From positions 50,035 to 114,034 of IMG/VR virus record IMGVR_UViG_3300043313_001352: a DNA stretch of 64,000 nt; one strand, given 5' to 3'. Source of the stretch: a virus. A program made the translations under genes and the position numbers. Position 1 is the stretch's first letter. Each line of letters starts with the position of its first letter. Positions 21,611-50,188 of the stretch are shown here, piece after piece. Below the pieces are notes generated by a model that ran no database searches, was not told the DNA's origin, and was given only the letters and a program-made list of their open reading frames with translations.

Positions 21611-24600
21611 TAGCCGCGCCGGGCCACGCCGAGCCGTGCCCAACCATGCCTTGCCAATCCGCGCCTGCCGCACCTTGCCGCACCCACCTATCCATGCCGG
21701 TCCCAGCCTCACCACGCCTGCCTGGCCGCGCCACGGCGCGCCTTGCCCGGCCATGCCTTGCCAACCCCGCCTGCCTTGCCCGGCCGCGCCTAGCCTTTCC
21801 ACACCGCGCCTGCCCCGCCATGCCGAACCTGGTCACGCCTCGCCCAGACGGGCCTGCCAAGCCCAGCCCAGCCAAACCTTGCCTTGCCGCACCTGGCTGT
21901 GCCACGCCTGCCTGGCCGCGCCACACCCAGTCGTGCCAGGTCCCGCCTAGCCATTCCCTGCCTGCCTCGCCGTGCCTGACCGCACCCCACCATGCCTAGC
22001 CCCACCGCGCCTGCCATGCCGTACCAGACCTTGCCGAGCCAACCGGGGCTGCCTTGCCAAGCCCACCGCACCTAGCCCTCCGCGCTGCGCCTGTCCATGC
22101 CTAGCCCTGCCTGCCTCGCCATGCCGTACCGGACCCTGCCGGACCGGACCACTTCGGAACACACCTAGCCATGCCCTGCCGAGCCTGCCAAGCCACGCCC
22201 CACCGGACCCGACCACGCCTAACGCCACCTGGCCCCGTCAGTCCGTACCTAGCCACGCCTGCCTTGCCGTGCCGTGCCGGGCCTAACCCCACCCGACCAT
22301 GCCTTGCCTGCCGCGCCGCGCCCACCCGGCCATGCCTAGCCCCAGGTCACCTCGCCCAGCCTGCCTCGCCCAACCCGGCCATGCCTAGCCCTGTACGCCG
22401 CGCCACGCCTGCCGGACCAAGCCGCGCCTGACCGAACCAAGCCCCGCCGAGCCCACCTCGCCTGCCGGACCTGGCCGTGCCTGGCCTAGCCGCGCCCATC
22501 CATGCCCCGCCTGCCAAGACCCGCCGTGCCGTGCCATCGGTACCGAGCCCTACCAAACCACGCCTGCCGCGCCGTGCCAGACCGCTGCCGTGCCGACCAC
22601 GCCTAACCTTGCCCCGCCTGCCGTGCCATGCCCAGTCGCACCCTGCCGCGATCGCCATGCCCAGCCGTGCCGTTCCTGCCATGCCGGACCTCGCCCTCCC
22701 GGCCATGTCGTGCCCTGCCCCGCCTGCCCTGCCGAGACTGGCCGAGCCGTGCCATGCCTTGCTCACCTGGCCGTGCCGAGCCCGGACCCGCCTGCCTTGC
22801 CATGCCGGGCCGAGCCGTGCCTACCTGACCTAGCCCTGCCTGCCCAGCCACAGCTTGCCGTGCCTTGCCATCCGCGCCTCGCCTGCCGCACCCCACCTAG
22901 CCTGACCGAGTCATGCCCCGCCTGCCTCGCCTTGCCAGGACATGCCTTGCCACACCGCGGTGCACCAACGCCTCGCCTGCCAAGCCTTGCCTTGCCGTGT
23001 GCTGCCAAGCCGGGCCTGGACATGCCCACACGTGCCCTGCCGACCCGAACCACACCGAGCCATGCCTGCCGCGCCACGCCTTGCCTTGCCATGTCAACCG
23101 GGCCTGGCCCTGCCGCCCGCGCCTTGCCACGCCTGCCCGACCACACCACGCCTTGACCTACCCACGATGCCCCGCCTGCCGGGCCTAGCCCTGCCTTGCC
23201 AGACGATCCTGGCCGCGCCTGCCCTGCCTTGAGCGCCTTGCCTCGACCCGCCGTGCCAGGACTGCCGGACCGTACCGTGCCCAGCCTCGCCACGCCGTAC
23301 CTAGCCGCACCTGCCGGACCGTGCCTTGCCCAGCCACTCCATCCGTACCTAGCCTGCCGAGCCGTGCCTTGTCACGCCACGTCCCGCCCGGACTCGCCCC
23401 ACCGAGCCATGCCTGCCCAGCCGAACCACTCCTAGCCTGGCCATACCCTGCGCTGCCTGCCGTACCGAGCCACGCCGTACCGCGGAAGCCACGCCGATGC
23501 CTTGCCCCGCCTGCCGAGCCGTTCCTGGCCATGTCCCGCCGCGCCGTGTGCTGCCCCGCCTAGCCCCGCCTGCCGCGCCATGCCTTGCCGACCTTGCCTC
23601 GCCCAACCGTGCCAGACCTGCCCCGCCGCACCTAGCTGCACCGCACCAAGACCCGCCTGCCGCGCCTGGCCGAACCTTGCCATCCTTGCCCTCCGCGCCG
23701 CACCGAGACACGCCTGCCCAGCCCCGTCGTGCCATGCCTGGCCGCGCCCCACCTGACCAAGCCTGCCGAGCCGGGCCGCACCATCCTCGCCATCCGGTGC
23801 CGTGCCCCGCCTTGCCTGCCGCGCCGCGCCCTGCCAAACCTAGCCAAGTCGTGCCCTGCCATGACGAGCCGTGCCGGACCTGCCGTACCTCGCCACGCCC
23901 AGCTCCGCCGAACCTCCCGAGCCCAGCCATGCCTGCCGAGCCGAGCCGCGCCCCGCTTCGCCCTGCCAGGCCCGACCTTGCCATGCCTGCCACACCCGGC
24001 CTTGCCACATACTGCCGCGCCCACCGATCCTGGCCGCGCCCAGCCATGCCTGCCCGGCCCCGCCGCACCTCGCCATGCGCTGCGATACCACGCCACGCCC
24101 TCCGCGCCTGCCTGGCTCAGCCACACCGTCCCGTGCCACGTATCCCAGACCACGCCATGCCTGCCTCACCTAGCCCTGCCAAGCCCGGCCAATCCTGGAC
24201 GTGCCGGACCGAGCCAAGCCTGCCGGACCACGACGTCCATGCCCTGCCGCTGCCATGTGATGCCCTCCGCACCGAGCCACGCCTGCCTGACCGCACCAGA
24301 CCCGGCCGCACCCTGCCTAGACCACCGCGCCATGCCTGCCGTGCCGAGCCAGCCCTTGCCTCGTGAAGCCCAGCCCCGCCTCGCCGTGCCCAGCCAATCC
24401 GCGCCTGCCCCACCGATCCAAGCCCTGCCTTGCCTAGGCAAACCACGCCTGCCTGGCCTAGCCGGACCAAGCCGAACCCCGCCTATCCCCGACCCGCCTG
24501 CCGGACCGCACCTTGCCGTCCGCGCCGCGCCCAACGATGCCCAGCCACGCCTGCCGAACCGTGCCACGCCGTACGCCCCAAGCCGGACCCAACCTGCCCC

Positions 24601-25590
24601 GCCTCGCCTAGCCCAGTCTCGCCATGCCCAGCCTGGCCGTGCCCCGTTCACCGCGCCTGCCGAGCCTCGCCCCACCGACCTAGCCAACCCAGACCTAGCC
24701 TGCCGCGCCTCGCCCAGACAAACCATCCTCGCCGGACCGCCCGCACCTCGCTGCGCCAAGCCTGCCGCGCCACGTCATGCCACAGCTCGCCGCCCGTACC
24801 AAGCCTCGCCTGCCCCACCTCACCTAGCCAGGACGCGCCGGACAGCACCACGCCTCGCCACACCTTGCCTGCCGGGCCGCACCGAACGATGCCGAAAGCC
24901 ACCAAGCCCAATCATCCGAGCCGCACCACGCCTGCCTTGCCCGGCCGGACCGGACCGCGCCGTACCCGCCCCTGACAAACCCTGCCTAGCCCTGCCAGCT
25001 CCCTGCCATGCCTGGCCTGCCAGACCACGCCCCTCCGAACCTGGCCACACCATGCCCTGCCTCGCCTGCCGTGCCCGACCCTGCCAACGACGCCTAGCCC
25101 TGACACACCATGCCCTGCCTGCCACGCCGTGCCCAACCAAGCCCGGCCGGTCCCTGCGATGCCTTGCCATGCCAAGCCTGCCGTGACCCGCCTTGCCACG
25201 CCCCGCTTGCCCCGACGCACCTGGCCTTGCCTAGCCTGCCGAACCTAGCCGAGCCACACCATGCGTAGCCCCGCCGGACCAACCCGAGCCCCGCCCTGCC
25301 TGCCGCGCCTGGCCGTTCCCAGCCCACCAAGCCACACCGTCCCGGCCAAGCCTGGCCGTGCCAAGCCTGCCCAACCGCGCCTGGCCAGACCAAGCCAAGC
25401 CGTGCCATCCGCGCCTTGCCGACCACTCCGTGCCGCGCCCCGCCTGCCGGGCCTGGACTCGCCGTGCCATGCCTAGACCTGCCTGCCATGCCGCGACGAC
25501 CGGGCCAAGAATCCCATGCCCCGCCCCGCCTAGCCTGCCCCGCCGAGCGATGCCCTGCCGCGCCTAGCGTTGCCATCCCGTGCCTGCCGT
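21611..25590 (-). ncRNA. ~4-kb GGY-NN pentamer guide array (about 75-85 units of ~7-15 pentamers separated by GGCA-GGC); VIPR-like RNA array
   Basis: The + strand parses as NN-RCC pentamers (tagcc gcgcc gggcc acgcc gagcc gtgcc caacc atgcc ttgcc...) with a recurrent gcc-tgcc punctuation. The NN content is unique per unit, and the ORFs here are low-complexity artefacts. Confidence 0.85.
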
Positions 25591-25659: not shown

Positions 25660-26343
25660 TTACTTGACCTCGACCGAGCGCGTCGGGTCGATCATGAAGG
25701 TGCCCATGTCGCCCTTCTTCTCCGGGCGCCACTCACCGACGCCGACACCCAGGCCACCGGCCTCGATCAGCGAGAGCACGCTCTCGCGGGTCAGCATCGA
25801 CTTCACGTACGTCACCTCCAGCACCGTCGACCACTCGGTGAACTGCGGCCGGTAGCGCAGGTCGGTGCCGCCGTTGCCGACGCGCACGACGTCCTCGCGC
25901 ATGATCGGCTCGCCCTCGATCCGGACCATCATCTGGCCCTCGGTCTTGGACATCTCGCCGGAGAAGAACAACGTCTGCCGGAGGCTGACCATGGTCACGC
26001 TCTTGTCGAAGAACCTCGCAGCGCTGACGGTCGCGGCCTTGAACGCGATCGAGGGGAACCCGTAGCCGCCGTCGTCCATCTTGTAGGCCGCGGCCTCGTA
26101 GTCGCCCTCGGGGTCCTTGGGCGCCTTCGGGCTCTTGCGGCCCTGCATCGCATCCAACATCTGCCTCTTCGCCTTCTCGCTGAACTTGTGCATGATCAAC
26201 GGCGCGGAGCCGACGATCGGGATCAGCAGCGTCTCGGTGCCGATCCGGGAGATCTCGATCGCCGGTGCGCTCTCGTCCTCGGCGGGAGGAGGAGTCGCTG
26301 CGGTCTTCTTGGCTGCGGTCTTCTTGGCAGGCTTCGTGGCCAT
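25660..26343 (-). CDS. RAMP/Cas7-like RNA-binding protein (Vipr-like effector)
   Basis: GSAPLIMH (beta1), GFPSIAFKAATVSAA (cf. RAMP IPGSSLKGxxR) and a C-terminal Gly-rich loop GGLGVGVGEWRPEKKGDMGTF. RBS AAGGA before ATG 26343; lies immediately upstream of the array. Confidence 0.75.
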   Translation of the reverse strand: MATKPAKKTAAKKTAATPPPAEDESAPAIEISRIGTETLLIPIVGSAPLIMHKFSEKAKRQMLDAMQGRKSPKAPKDPEGDYEAAAYKMDDGGYGFPSIAFKAATVSAARFFDKSVTMVSLRQTLFFSGEMSKTEGQMMVRIEGEPIMREDVVRVGNGGTDLRYRPQFTEWSTVLEVTYVKSMLTRESVLSLIEAGGLGVGVGEWRPEKKGDMGTFMIDPTRSVEVK

Positions 26344-49265: not shown

Positions 49266-50188
49266 ATGGTCTCCTTGAGGTGAGCGGCCTGAGCTGCTGC
49301 CAGGTCGTGGTGCACGAGATCGCCGAGCCACTCCACGTCATCGGGAGTCAGATAGTAGGGGCTGGTGACACCCATCGCCCGGCCTTCGTCGGTGTCGCAG
49401 AGGTACACAGTGCCCGCGTGAGCGACGTACAGGGGTGTGGGGGTCCACCAGCCCGGCATCCGCTCGATCGCGCCCTGGTGGACGCCCCTGGCCACGCTGT
49501 AGACCTTCGCCGGGTTGGCCATGGTGGTGGAGTCGATCGGGATCACCGGCCAGTTCACCCGCTCCGGCTCCAGCACCTGCGGGGAGTAGTGCCGGTCGGT
49601 CAGCCACAGCATCGCTGGCTGGGGCGGGTACACCAGCCGCGGCAGCTCGATGGCGGAGGAGACGTCCACCGGCACCACCTCGCTGACGATGCTGATCCGC
49701 TTGGCGGCGATCGCCGGGCTGGCCCAGGGGTGCAGCGGCATCAGCACCGGCGGCCAGACTTCTTCGGCGAGCACGGTGAGGGCGGCGGTGATGTGGGTGC
49801 GCTGCTTCTTGGTGAGGTTGCGGGACTGCTTGACCCGCTTGCTCATCAGGTACGGCGAGTACAGCCGGTCCAGCTCGCGGATCGCGCTCTGTGCCGCGGC
49901 TCGGGTCTTGTTCAGGTCGGGATCGTCGACGAAGAGCAGCAGCGGCGTGTCGTCGAGCAGCGCCTGGCCGATCACCTCCAGTCCGACCAGGGCGTAGGTC
50001 GCGCCCGGAGACAGGGCGGAGGTCACACCACCGATGATGAGGTCGGCGTTGTCAGGCGCCTCGGGACCGCGGTAAACCGCGTGGTCCATCGTGGTCAGCG
50101 CCCGCTCCAGCGTGCGCGCGAACGTGACTAGCTCGCGCGCACGCTGGGACACCATCCGAGGACTCATCCCGGTGATGTGGATCCTCAC
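49166..50188 (-). CDS. hypothetical, possibly GT-B-fold glycosyltransferase-like protein
   Basis: Start GTG 50188 with RBS AGGAG; MRIHITG...LLLFVDDP...GWWTP pattern; weak assignment. Confidence 0.4.
   Translation of the reverse strand: MRIHITGMSPRMVSQRARELVTFARTLERALTTMDHAVYRGPEAPDNADLIIGGVTSALSPGATYALVGLEVIGQALLDDTPLLLFVDDPDLNKTRAAAQSAIRELDRLYSPYLMSKRVKQSRNLTKKQRTHITAALTVLAEEVWPPVLMPLHPWASPAIAAKRISIVSEVVPVDVSSAIELPRLVYPPQPAMLWLTDRHYSPQVLEPERVNWPVIPIDSTTMANPAKVYSVARGVHQGAIERMPGWWTPTPLYVAHAGTVYLCDTDEGRAMGVTSPYYLTPDDVEWLGDLVHHDLAAAQAAHLKETMWNHDTLSSVLADSLGRVRSSKKRATKTAPSRT

Follow-up and report, generated by a model that had tools for sequence, protein, structure and literature searches.

A phage repeat array that very probably encodes some 74 VIPR guide RNAs, one of them matching the adenylation motif of bacterial Bub E2-E1 proteins

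What is the role of a 4-kb noncoding tract of five-nucleotide repeats in a phage genome, and do the two variable bases of each repeat carry information? These questions are raised by a locus in IMG/VR virus record IMGVR_UViG_3300043313_001352, of which positions 50,035 to 114,034 were analyzed (64,000 nucleotides, nt; hereafter referred to as the window, which defines all coordinates given below unless another locus is named). The phage record has a length of 114 kb, is ~92% complete and has ~67% GC; the window, which covers its right-hand 64 kb, contains tail, primase and glycosyltransferase genes. The tract reads NN-RCC on the plus (+) strand and GGY-NN on the minus (−) strand. As outlined below, the region is very probably the guide-RNA array of a phage-borne VIPR (Viral Interference Programmable Repeat) system:

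21600−25592, − strand: staggered array of guide RNAs (vrRNAs), 74 units of GGY-NN repeats with GGCA/GGC separators (one-base overlap)

VIPR is the subject of three bioRxiv preprints from 2026, two from April and one from October (10.64898/2026.04.26.720920, 10.64898/2026.04.26.720927 and 10.64898/2026.10.15.759431). As described there, Vipr is a ~20-kDa RAMP protein, encoded together with an accessory vap gene and vrRNAs of 9−16 YNNGG repeats; it polymerizes on the RNA, where it sequesters each GGY and presents each NN (10.64898/2026.04.26.720920). The NN pair with the target while one base is skipped (the 1-nt skip rule), and the skip falls mostly at the wobble position (same source). The target is described as double-stranded DNA (dsDNA), on either strand, to which a gapped hybrid is formed within a triplex R-loop according to the electron cryomicroscopy (cryo-EM) preprint (10.64898/2026.04.26.720927). 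The natural targets listed are satellites, prophage regulators and other VIPRs, and seven types are distinguished, some of which have staggered arrays where adjacent vrRNAs overlap by one base (fig. S18; 10.64898/2026.04.26.720920). The characterized example is the type II system of Escherichia phage SUSP1, with four vrRNAs.

The grammar of the tract corresponds to that of a staggered array. The autocorrelation is 0.52 at lag 5 vs 0.21−0.30 off phase, and the lag-5 peak slides to 4 mod 5 with distance, which indicates that shorter words, i.e., tetramers, break up the pentamers. A Viterbi parse of the − strand yielded 821 words, of which 693 are pentamers, 122 tetramers and 6 hexamers; GGC or GGT stands at the beginning of 676 words (82%). 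Wherever the tetramer GGCA is followed by GGC the tract is cut, and the resulting 74 units comprise 5−17 repeats each (mode 10, mostly 8−12). Because GGCAG and GGCNN have one G in common, the 74 GGCA/GGC boundaries have the look of a one-base overlap between these words, from which the region is identified as a VIPR staggered array. Apart from the 5-nt period and GGCAGGC no long-range order was found in the array, including any repeat−spacer structure. A CRISPR-Cas locus was considered as a candidate and rejected: there are no direct repeats of ~25−40 nt alternating with unique spacers, and no Cas Pfam domains were detected in the neighboring genes scanned. No Rfam family was matched in the window, megablast of the 9-kb region against known phages gave no match, and a promoter/terminator consensus scan around the array identified neither a sigma-70-like promoter nor an intrinsic terminator.

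The array is bracketed by two genes on the − strand, neither of which has a Pfam domain:

25660−26376, − strand: vipr gene (gene A), encoding a 238-residue RAMP protein of the Cas7/Csm3 fold; phrog_4652
21084−21554, − strand: vap-like accessory gene (gene B), encoding 156 residues, of which residues 11−111 are winged-helix-like; phrog_15946

The AlphaFold model of the gene A product has a pLDDT (predicted local distance difference test score) of 78, with an N-terminal Lys/Ala/Pro-rich tail below 50. In a Foldseek search of the PDB the top matches were type VII Cas7 (8z4j_J, E 2e-6) and Csm3 (6xn3_F and 9ash_F), with template-modeling (TM) scores of 0.42−0.55, and the matches as a whole were to type VII and type III Cas7/Csm3 subunits and to the Cas7 domains present in Cas7-11 (probability 1.0, with E from 2e-6 to 1e-4). 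For the matches as a whole the TM scores were 0.38−0.49 when normalized by the query and up to 0.56 when normalized by a stand-alone Cas7/Csm3 chain. An alignment of the gene A family, which has 4473 homologues at E <= 0.001, was compared by hhalign with SUSP1 Vipr (NC_028808 agp039) and gave a probability of 96.2% and E 2.7e-9 for 62 columns, among which is the GVG-WRP G-loop. As judged from this profile alignment, gene A is a true homologue of the characterized SUSP1 Vipr, and the SUSP1 locus carries the same kind of repeats, GGT-NN. For vap products of VIPR systems a DNA-interacting fold is predicted. The model of the gene B product (pLDDT 88) shows modest similarity, VIA-align Z 5.0−6.3, to forkhead, MarR and ESCRT-II winged-helix domains; a Foldseek search with this model returned no significant match.

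In the part of gene A that codes for the N-terminal tail (residues 1−40), a 15-nt tandem repeat (GCTGCGGTCTTCTTG x2.1, + strand) is found at 26297−26328. In contigs of soil runs, breaks or divergence are found exactly at 26295−26332, and the length of the N-terminal tail varies widely among gene A homologues.

The association of array and vipr is seen in other phages. The A+B gene pair is adjacent in Gordonia phages Pipp, UmaThurman, ODay and Ecliptus and in 27 Mycobacterium phage records (e.g., Saal), and in ODay and Pipp a short GGC-NN array with GGCAGGC punctuation occupies the gap between the A and B homologues. Within ~1 kb of the gene A homologue a GGY-NN array is present on the same strand in 47 of 49 IMG/VR loci; in none does it lie beside the gene on the other strand. 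With its 74 guides, the array described here is the largest among 50 arrays compared.

In the Pipp genome (MN234179.1), gene 43 (L005:3111−3380), annotated as a hypothetical protein between the Vipr and vap homologues, coincides with the GGC-NN array and is most likely a vrRNA array miscalled as a coding sequence. The similar gap in ODay, of 213 nt (L006:3110−3322), is unannotated. In the Cheoctovirus mycobacteriophage Saal (NC_023580.1) an array is found upstream of the Vipr homologue (gene 51; L007:2035−2395), in the gap after gene 50 and near the immunity region, i.e., not between vipr and vap.

Pipp gene 43 is open throughout its short array, and open reading frames (ORFs) of up to 485 (+) and 239 (−) residues are present in the array of the window, as would be found if the region were protein-coding, or a degraded coding repeat with a 15-nt, five-residue period. 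However, open frames are expected from DNA with 73% GC, no frame is open across the 4 kb and the tetramers shift the frame about every 55 nt. Furthermore, unit insertions and deletions are not multiples of 3, and the array is present in 47 loci with quite different sequence. A coding function is hardly credible in view of these properties.

A comparison with a sister phage (locus L008), whose Vipr is 95% identical, shows which bases of the array are maintained. The collinear 3.6-kb array of this phage (L008:7719−11282) has 53 of the 74 units in common with that of the window, and whole-unit gains and losses between the two fall exactly at GGCAGGC junctions. Within the shared units the GGY sites differ at 6.0% (81/1340) and the NN sites at 2.7% (24/898; Fisher p = 2e-4), the values for individual positions being 9.4% for Y, 6.1% for G2, 2.7% for G1, 1.8% for N1 and 3.6% for N2. 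Several words that lack GGY in one of the phages are canonical in the other, with the NN unchanged. Better conservation of the NN than of the GGY scaffold is what would be expected if the NN carry specificity. Variation by whole units is seen also in natural populations: the public runs that contain the stretch are all soil metagenomes, and contigs from four of these runs join across 22186−22257, 22305−22359, 23261−23311, 23509−23617 and 24934−25025, i.e., skips of roughly one or two unit lengths distinguish the strains that occur together. In many cases the variant agrees with the form seen in L008.

What do the NN specify? In the initial annotation of this DNA, the NN of the + strand were read as codon positions 1−2, with the third position skipped. 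The composition of 747 NN was compared with that of this phage's own genes, allowing either orientation for each unit, and the log-likelihood was −2079 for codon positions 1−2, −2401 for positions 2−3 and −2564 for positions 3−1, with −2201 for the genomic background. Because the genome has 88% GC at third positions, a code that included the wobble base would look very different. The four NN strings that had been quoted (22116−22185, 23885−23933, 23992−24050 and 24055−24108), as well as their decodings, are all correct as + strand readings. A gapped, wobble-skipping code has already been published (2026), and the present data are an independent confirmation of it, from sequence alone, in actinobacterial phages. 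The guide for which the evidence is clearest is:

22116−22185, − strand: guide against the adenylation motif (GxGxxG) in the E1 part of Bub E2-E1 (DUF6791+ThiF); the + strand NN read S-I-V-G-L-G-G-T-G-T-Y-I-L-D

A total of 596 Gb of bacterial and archaeal genomes (1.2e12 positions) was scanned with the NNx pattern of this unit, where the first NN was left free and the tenth half free. This relaxed pattern specifies 25 bases and would be expected to match ~0.001 times by chance; at least 120 exactly matching stretches were found. At all 120 matches listed, the frame in which the NN fall on codon positions 1−2 is a long ORF (~400 residues where the whole gene was fetched), and the other two frames at these Bub loci are mostly short. 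The peptide at the matches listed is always (A/G)IVGLGGTG(S/A/T)YILD, located near residue 187 in most complete ORFs. Across the same matches the 13 skipped bases take all values, and the genomes, with GC contents between 37% and 70%, belong to Actinomycetota, Chloroflexota, Pseudomonadota, Bacteroidota and other groups. In other words, the guide skips the wobble base, as had been proposed from the array itself and in agreement with the published 1-nt skip rule. Because the skipped base is the wobble base, which varies across the loci, the guide covers a gene family and tolerates synonymous change, so that the earlier idea of a single guide that reaches a family, with no synonymous escape, holds for this unit. 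The allele of the same unit in the sister phage has 12 of 14 NN identical, the differences between the two alleles being mostly in GGY letters, and it agrees at 28 of 28 bases with 27 of the at least 120 loci, including the two positions left free or half free in the search.

These matches also bear on the possibility that the repeats bind a protein or serve a structural purpose and do not function as guides, e.g., as a sponge for Vipr, as a (GGN3)n G-quadruplex of RNA or DNA or as a TRAP-like site for pentamer binding, in which case the similarity to protein motifs would be coincidental. A GG every 5 nt could make two-tetrad quadruplexes, TRAP binds (G/U)AG-NN repeats, which have the same 5-nt period, and most guides are without a detected target. 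However, at least 120 in-frame matches in one motif, where ~0.001 are expected, exclude coincidence, and the sister allele is perfect at positions that the search did not constrain. In addition, the NN are more conserved than the scaffold and follow codon positions 1−2 in composition. We therefore consider a purely structural role to be very unlikely. A pentamer-binding ring of the TRAP type, a G-quadruplex of sequence (GGN3)n and a repeat coding for pentapeptides were among the candidates entertained, and these were dropped after the Cas7 fold and the VIPR papers had been found.

The matched genes encode the domains PF20590 (DUF6791) and PF00899 (ThiF) and are followed by a DUF6527 gene. The target is thus the E2-E1 fusion of type II Bub operons, where the DUF6527 gene encodes the BubE protease, and the motif concerned forms the nucleotide-binding loop in the adenylation domain of E1. 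The Bub pathway of bacteria is ubiquitination-like but diverged, and a role in antiphage immunity is suggested by genomic context (10.1101/2024.11.21.623953). In a random sample of 201 Actinomycetes genomes, a Bub E2-E1 gene was present in 6. At one of the Bub loci, L141, the E2-E1 gene (4176−5584, −) is part of a defense island that also includes AbiEi, PDC-M48A/B, a SocA/Panacea-domain protein and a fragment of a type IIG restriction enzyme. Another unit, at 22845−22883 (8 repeats), agrees at 13 of 16 bases, in frame, with a site 81 codons from the E1 motif in the Bub E2-E1 of two actinobacterial genomes (L178 and L179), a match that is too short to separate from chance.

Each unit of at least nine repeats was also scanned, with a skip of one base, against 904 kb around the Bub matches, together with 30 shuffles of its NN order. 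The initial annotation had anticipated that gapped matches would outnumber those of shuffled controls; in addition to unit 22116−22185, four units exceeded all 30 shuffles, by best score or by the number of loci matched, with the matches in frame. These four units are listed first below, followed by a fifth unit for which a motif had been proposed:

24454−24498, − strand: guide matching the tail ...S(H/Y)GNDP(Y/F)PP at the C-terminus encoded by the DUF2188 gene, which lies upstream of Bub E2-E1; 16−17 of 18 bases at 4 loci, above all 30 shuffles
25241−25300, − strand: second guide, matching a variant motif of the same DUF2188 tail (DSDTVSPGNDPF); 20 of 24 bases in L162, best shuffle 18
23992−24050, − strand: guide T-R-F-T-L-A-H-E-W-A-H-I (TRFTLAHEWAHI), decoding to the HExxH of an IrrE/ImmA-type (CapP-like) peptidase; 21 of 24 bases to TRFTLAHEIGHI, best shuffle 19
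23885−23933, − strand: guide V-S-T-H-P-D-S-D-H-I, decoding to a metallo-beta-lactamase (MBL) metal-binding motif; 17 of 20 bases to ISTHPDEDHI in L141
24055−24108, − strand: unit R-P-A-S-I-L-I-T-T-L-A, identical in the sister array; no target found

The weight of the four additional guides derives from where their matches fall, i.e., in frame, at conserved motifs and in genes that are on or beside the Bub operon or in the same defense neighborhoods. Judged by sequence matching, their targets are suggestive rather than proven, an exact match over the full length being found for none of the four. The DUF2188 protein is small, ends in Gly at 4 of 5 loci and is encoded directly upstream of the E2-E1 gene; it is probably the ubiquitin-like protein (Ubl), BubA, and the two guides correspond to two variants of its tail. 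Unit 23992−24050 has its match in a Peptidase_M78 ORF of a 4-kb contig (L079) that also carries a Bub E1 gene. CapP is a peptidase of this IrrE/ImmA type. Pairs of the regulators CapH and CapP accompany 31% of Bub operons (10.1101/2024.11.21.623953). For unit 23885−23933 the target is an MBL-fold gene identified by PADLOC as PDC-M48B (E 2e-144), a defense candidate, and 3 loci were matched at 78% or more vs at most 2 with shuffles. Unit 24055−24108 found no support either in an exact scan or in the shuffle-controlled scan of 904 kb. The earlier suggestion that four units spell protein motifs beyond what chance would give is thus borne out decisively for 22116−22185, on the basis of the at least 120 in-frame matches, and moderately for 23992−24050 and 23885−23933, which lie above 30 shuffles, while it is unsupported for 24055−24108.

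Each of the five guides for which a target was matched is complementary to the coding strand. This observation is compatible with action on DNA as well as on mRNA; of the two targets named in the initial annotation, where the RNA was held to be antisense to coding strands or mRNAs, the mRNA differs from the published findings, according to which the target is dsDNA. Were the guides to act on mRNA rather than DNA, with the vrRNA filament functioning as an antisense agent on transcripts, five of five matched guides would have the strand required, and the composition-based orientation scores lean the same way. However, this strand bias corresponds only to p ~0.06. Moreover, in the characterized systems both strands are targeted, purified complexes bind dsDNA and either strand silences a reporter (10.64898/2026.04.26.720920), and the cryo-EM preprint describes a triplex R-loop on DNA (10.64898/2026.04.26.720927). 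Action on mRNA therefore appears unlikely, although it is a less improbable alternative than a structural repeat or a coding sequence.

A number of observations weigh against the identification of the region as a VIPR guide array that is directed in part at Bub. GGY is missing from the start of ~18% of the words, and there are no RNA runs among the public runs that contain the stretch. An unambiguous target was obtained for only 1 of the 74 guides, and then with two NN relaxed; the window's own allele of unit 22116−22185 agrees with the matched loci at 25−27 of 28 bases and never at 28. With 56 units scanned, ~1.8, i.e., about two, are expected to exceed 30 shuffles by chance. Eight exact full-length NNx scans of IMG/VR viral or metagenome contigs, with seven different units, yielded no matches: unit 23992−24050 in viral contigs and in metagenome contigs, the unrelaxed unit 22116−22185, units 23885−23933 and 24055−24108 and those starting at 23880 and 23133 in viral or metagenome contigs, and unit 25241−25300 in metagenome contigs. 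With up to two mismatches allowed, unit 23992−24050 had no match in 401 Actinomycetota genomes. Finally, the antiphage role of Bub operons has itself been deduced from genomic context (10.1101/2024.11.21.623953).

Other searches were negative as well. Unit 23992−24050 had no match in five Bub-bearing genomes with up to three mismatches, and the addition of actinobacterial Bub loci gave no better matches for the other guides. In 770 kb comprising the phage's own genome and 52 loci, searched for self-targeting and for targets in related Vipr phages, the best matches equaled those of shuffles at skips of 0−3. Self-targeting is reported to be absent also in one preprint (10.64898/2026.04.26.720920). 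Other skip lengths gave only chance-level matches in local sets, a weak comparison since these sets were either target-free or picked with the skip-1 pattern.

On the basis of the VIPR preprints and the structure of the locus, the following sequence of events may be proposed. Transcription of the − strand would begin upstream of vipr or run through it, with vipr probably on the same transcript, and this transcript would then be cut at the GGCA/GGC junctions into ~74 vrRNAs of roughly 8−12 GGY-NN repeats. By analogy with the characterized system, the RAMP/Cas7-like Vipr protomers would polymerize along each vrRNA, hold the GGY and present the NN, and the filament would bind dsDNA of sequence NN-x-NN-x, where transcription would be silenced. 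Each guide would thereby correspond to a short peptide motif rather than to one DNA sequence, such that homologues in many genomes could be reached.

Part of the repertoire appears to be aimed at the Bub operon and its regulator, which would imply either counter-defense or conflict between elements. If the Bub operon is a host defense, the guides may serve counter-defense; if it resides on a rival mobile element, they may take part in inter-element conflict of the kind described in the preprints. We tentatively raise the possibility, which we rate below even chance, of an RNA-guided counter-defense, i.e., an inherited library of guides against invariant catalytic or terminal motifs of host immune operons. 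Its candidate targets, to be regarded as equally tentative, would be the adenylation loop of Bub E2-E1, the DUF2188 protein tail (probable BubA), the CapP-like regulator and the PDC-M48 MBL gene. With a code that disregards wobble bases, a given guide would silence its gene family in any host that the phage encounters. The targets described in the VIPR preprints are located in satellites, prophages and viruses, and host defense genes are not mentioned as targets in the parts of these texts that were searched. If the guides function in this way, VIPR would be not only a weapon between phages but also a programmable means through which phages could shut down host immunity at those residues of a defense enzyme that are most conserved, and the array would offer a direct handle on whether Bub operons defend against phages.

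In comparison with the known VIPR systems, the phage-borne locus described here has the same organization, i.e., a RAMP-fold Vipr beside GGY-NN repeat RNAs and a small accessory gene, with guides of ~9−16 repeats, a one-base skip at the codon wobble position and staggered arrays with a one-base overlap. It differs in scale, with ~74 guides in a single, transcript-sized array of 4 kb in place of the four vrRNAs of SUSP1, and in that each guide is without a conserved 3' tail or pseudoknot, the GGCA/GGC junction alone separating the guides. As its clearest target it has a chromosomal Bub operon, i.e., a candidate immune system, and not a satellite or prophage regulator; the nucleotide-binding loop of the Bub E2-E1 enzyme is matched codon by codon in at least 120 genomes from many phyla. 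The host range is also different: it is actinobacterial, the Vipr family having thousands of homologues in phages of Actinobacteria, and Mycobacterium, Gordonia and Actinobacteria are not mentioned in the parts of the VIPR texts that were searched.

The class 1 CRISPR-Cas backbones, i.e., the Cas7/Csm3 filaments, among which types III and VII are the best structural matches, have in common with this system an RRM (RNA-recognition motif) core, G-loop and thumb, as well as a filament that displays guide bases in short segments with periodic unpaired positions. In contrast, the period here is 5 nt with 2 paired bases per protomer, as compared with 6 nt and 5 paired. CRISPR repeats and a contiguous spacer are lacking, cas1, cas2 and other cas genes were not seen next to the array, and the guides show inheritance and reshuffling as units, with no visible acquisition from invaders. 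With phage counter-defense factors, such as anti-CRISPR proteins and RNAs, anti-CBASS and anti-Thoeris, the system would share the disabling of a host immune pathway by a phage, provided that the Bub guides are functional. The means would be different, i.e., RNA-guided transcriptional silencing at an invariant catalytic motif instead of an inhibitor, sponge or decoy.

Two further features of the window are related to the array:

25602−25644, − strand: hairpin of the leader, located after the vipr stop codon and before the first unit, with GGCAGG in one arm
5487−5838, + strand: second, smaller array of the same grammar, with five GGCA boundaries and ~six units

The leader hairpin folds at −43 kcal/mol (z = −3.3), a value equaled by 0 of 200 shuffles, and a comparable inverted repeat is found at the same place in sister locus L008. 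The smaller array is located between divergent genes, far from vipr and directly upstream of a gene encoding an HNH endonuclease (5823−6290, +). A third, short NN-RCC stretch, found by its similarity to the main array, is present elsewhere in the same phage genome, outside the window (G000:C1:34374−34412; locus L004 1423−1611).

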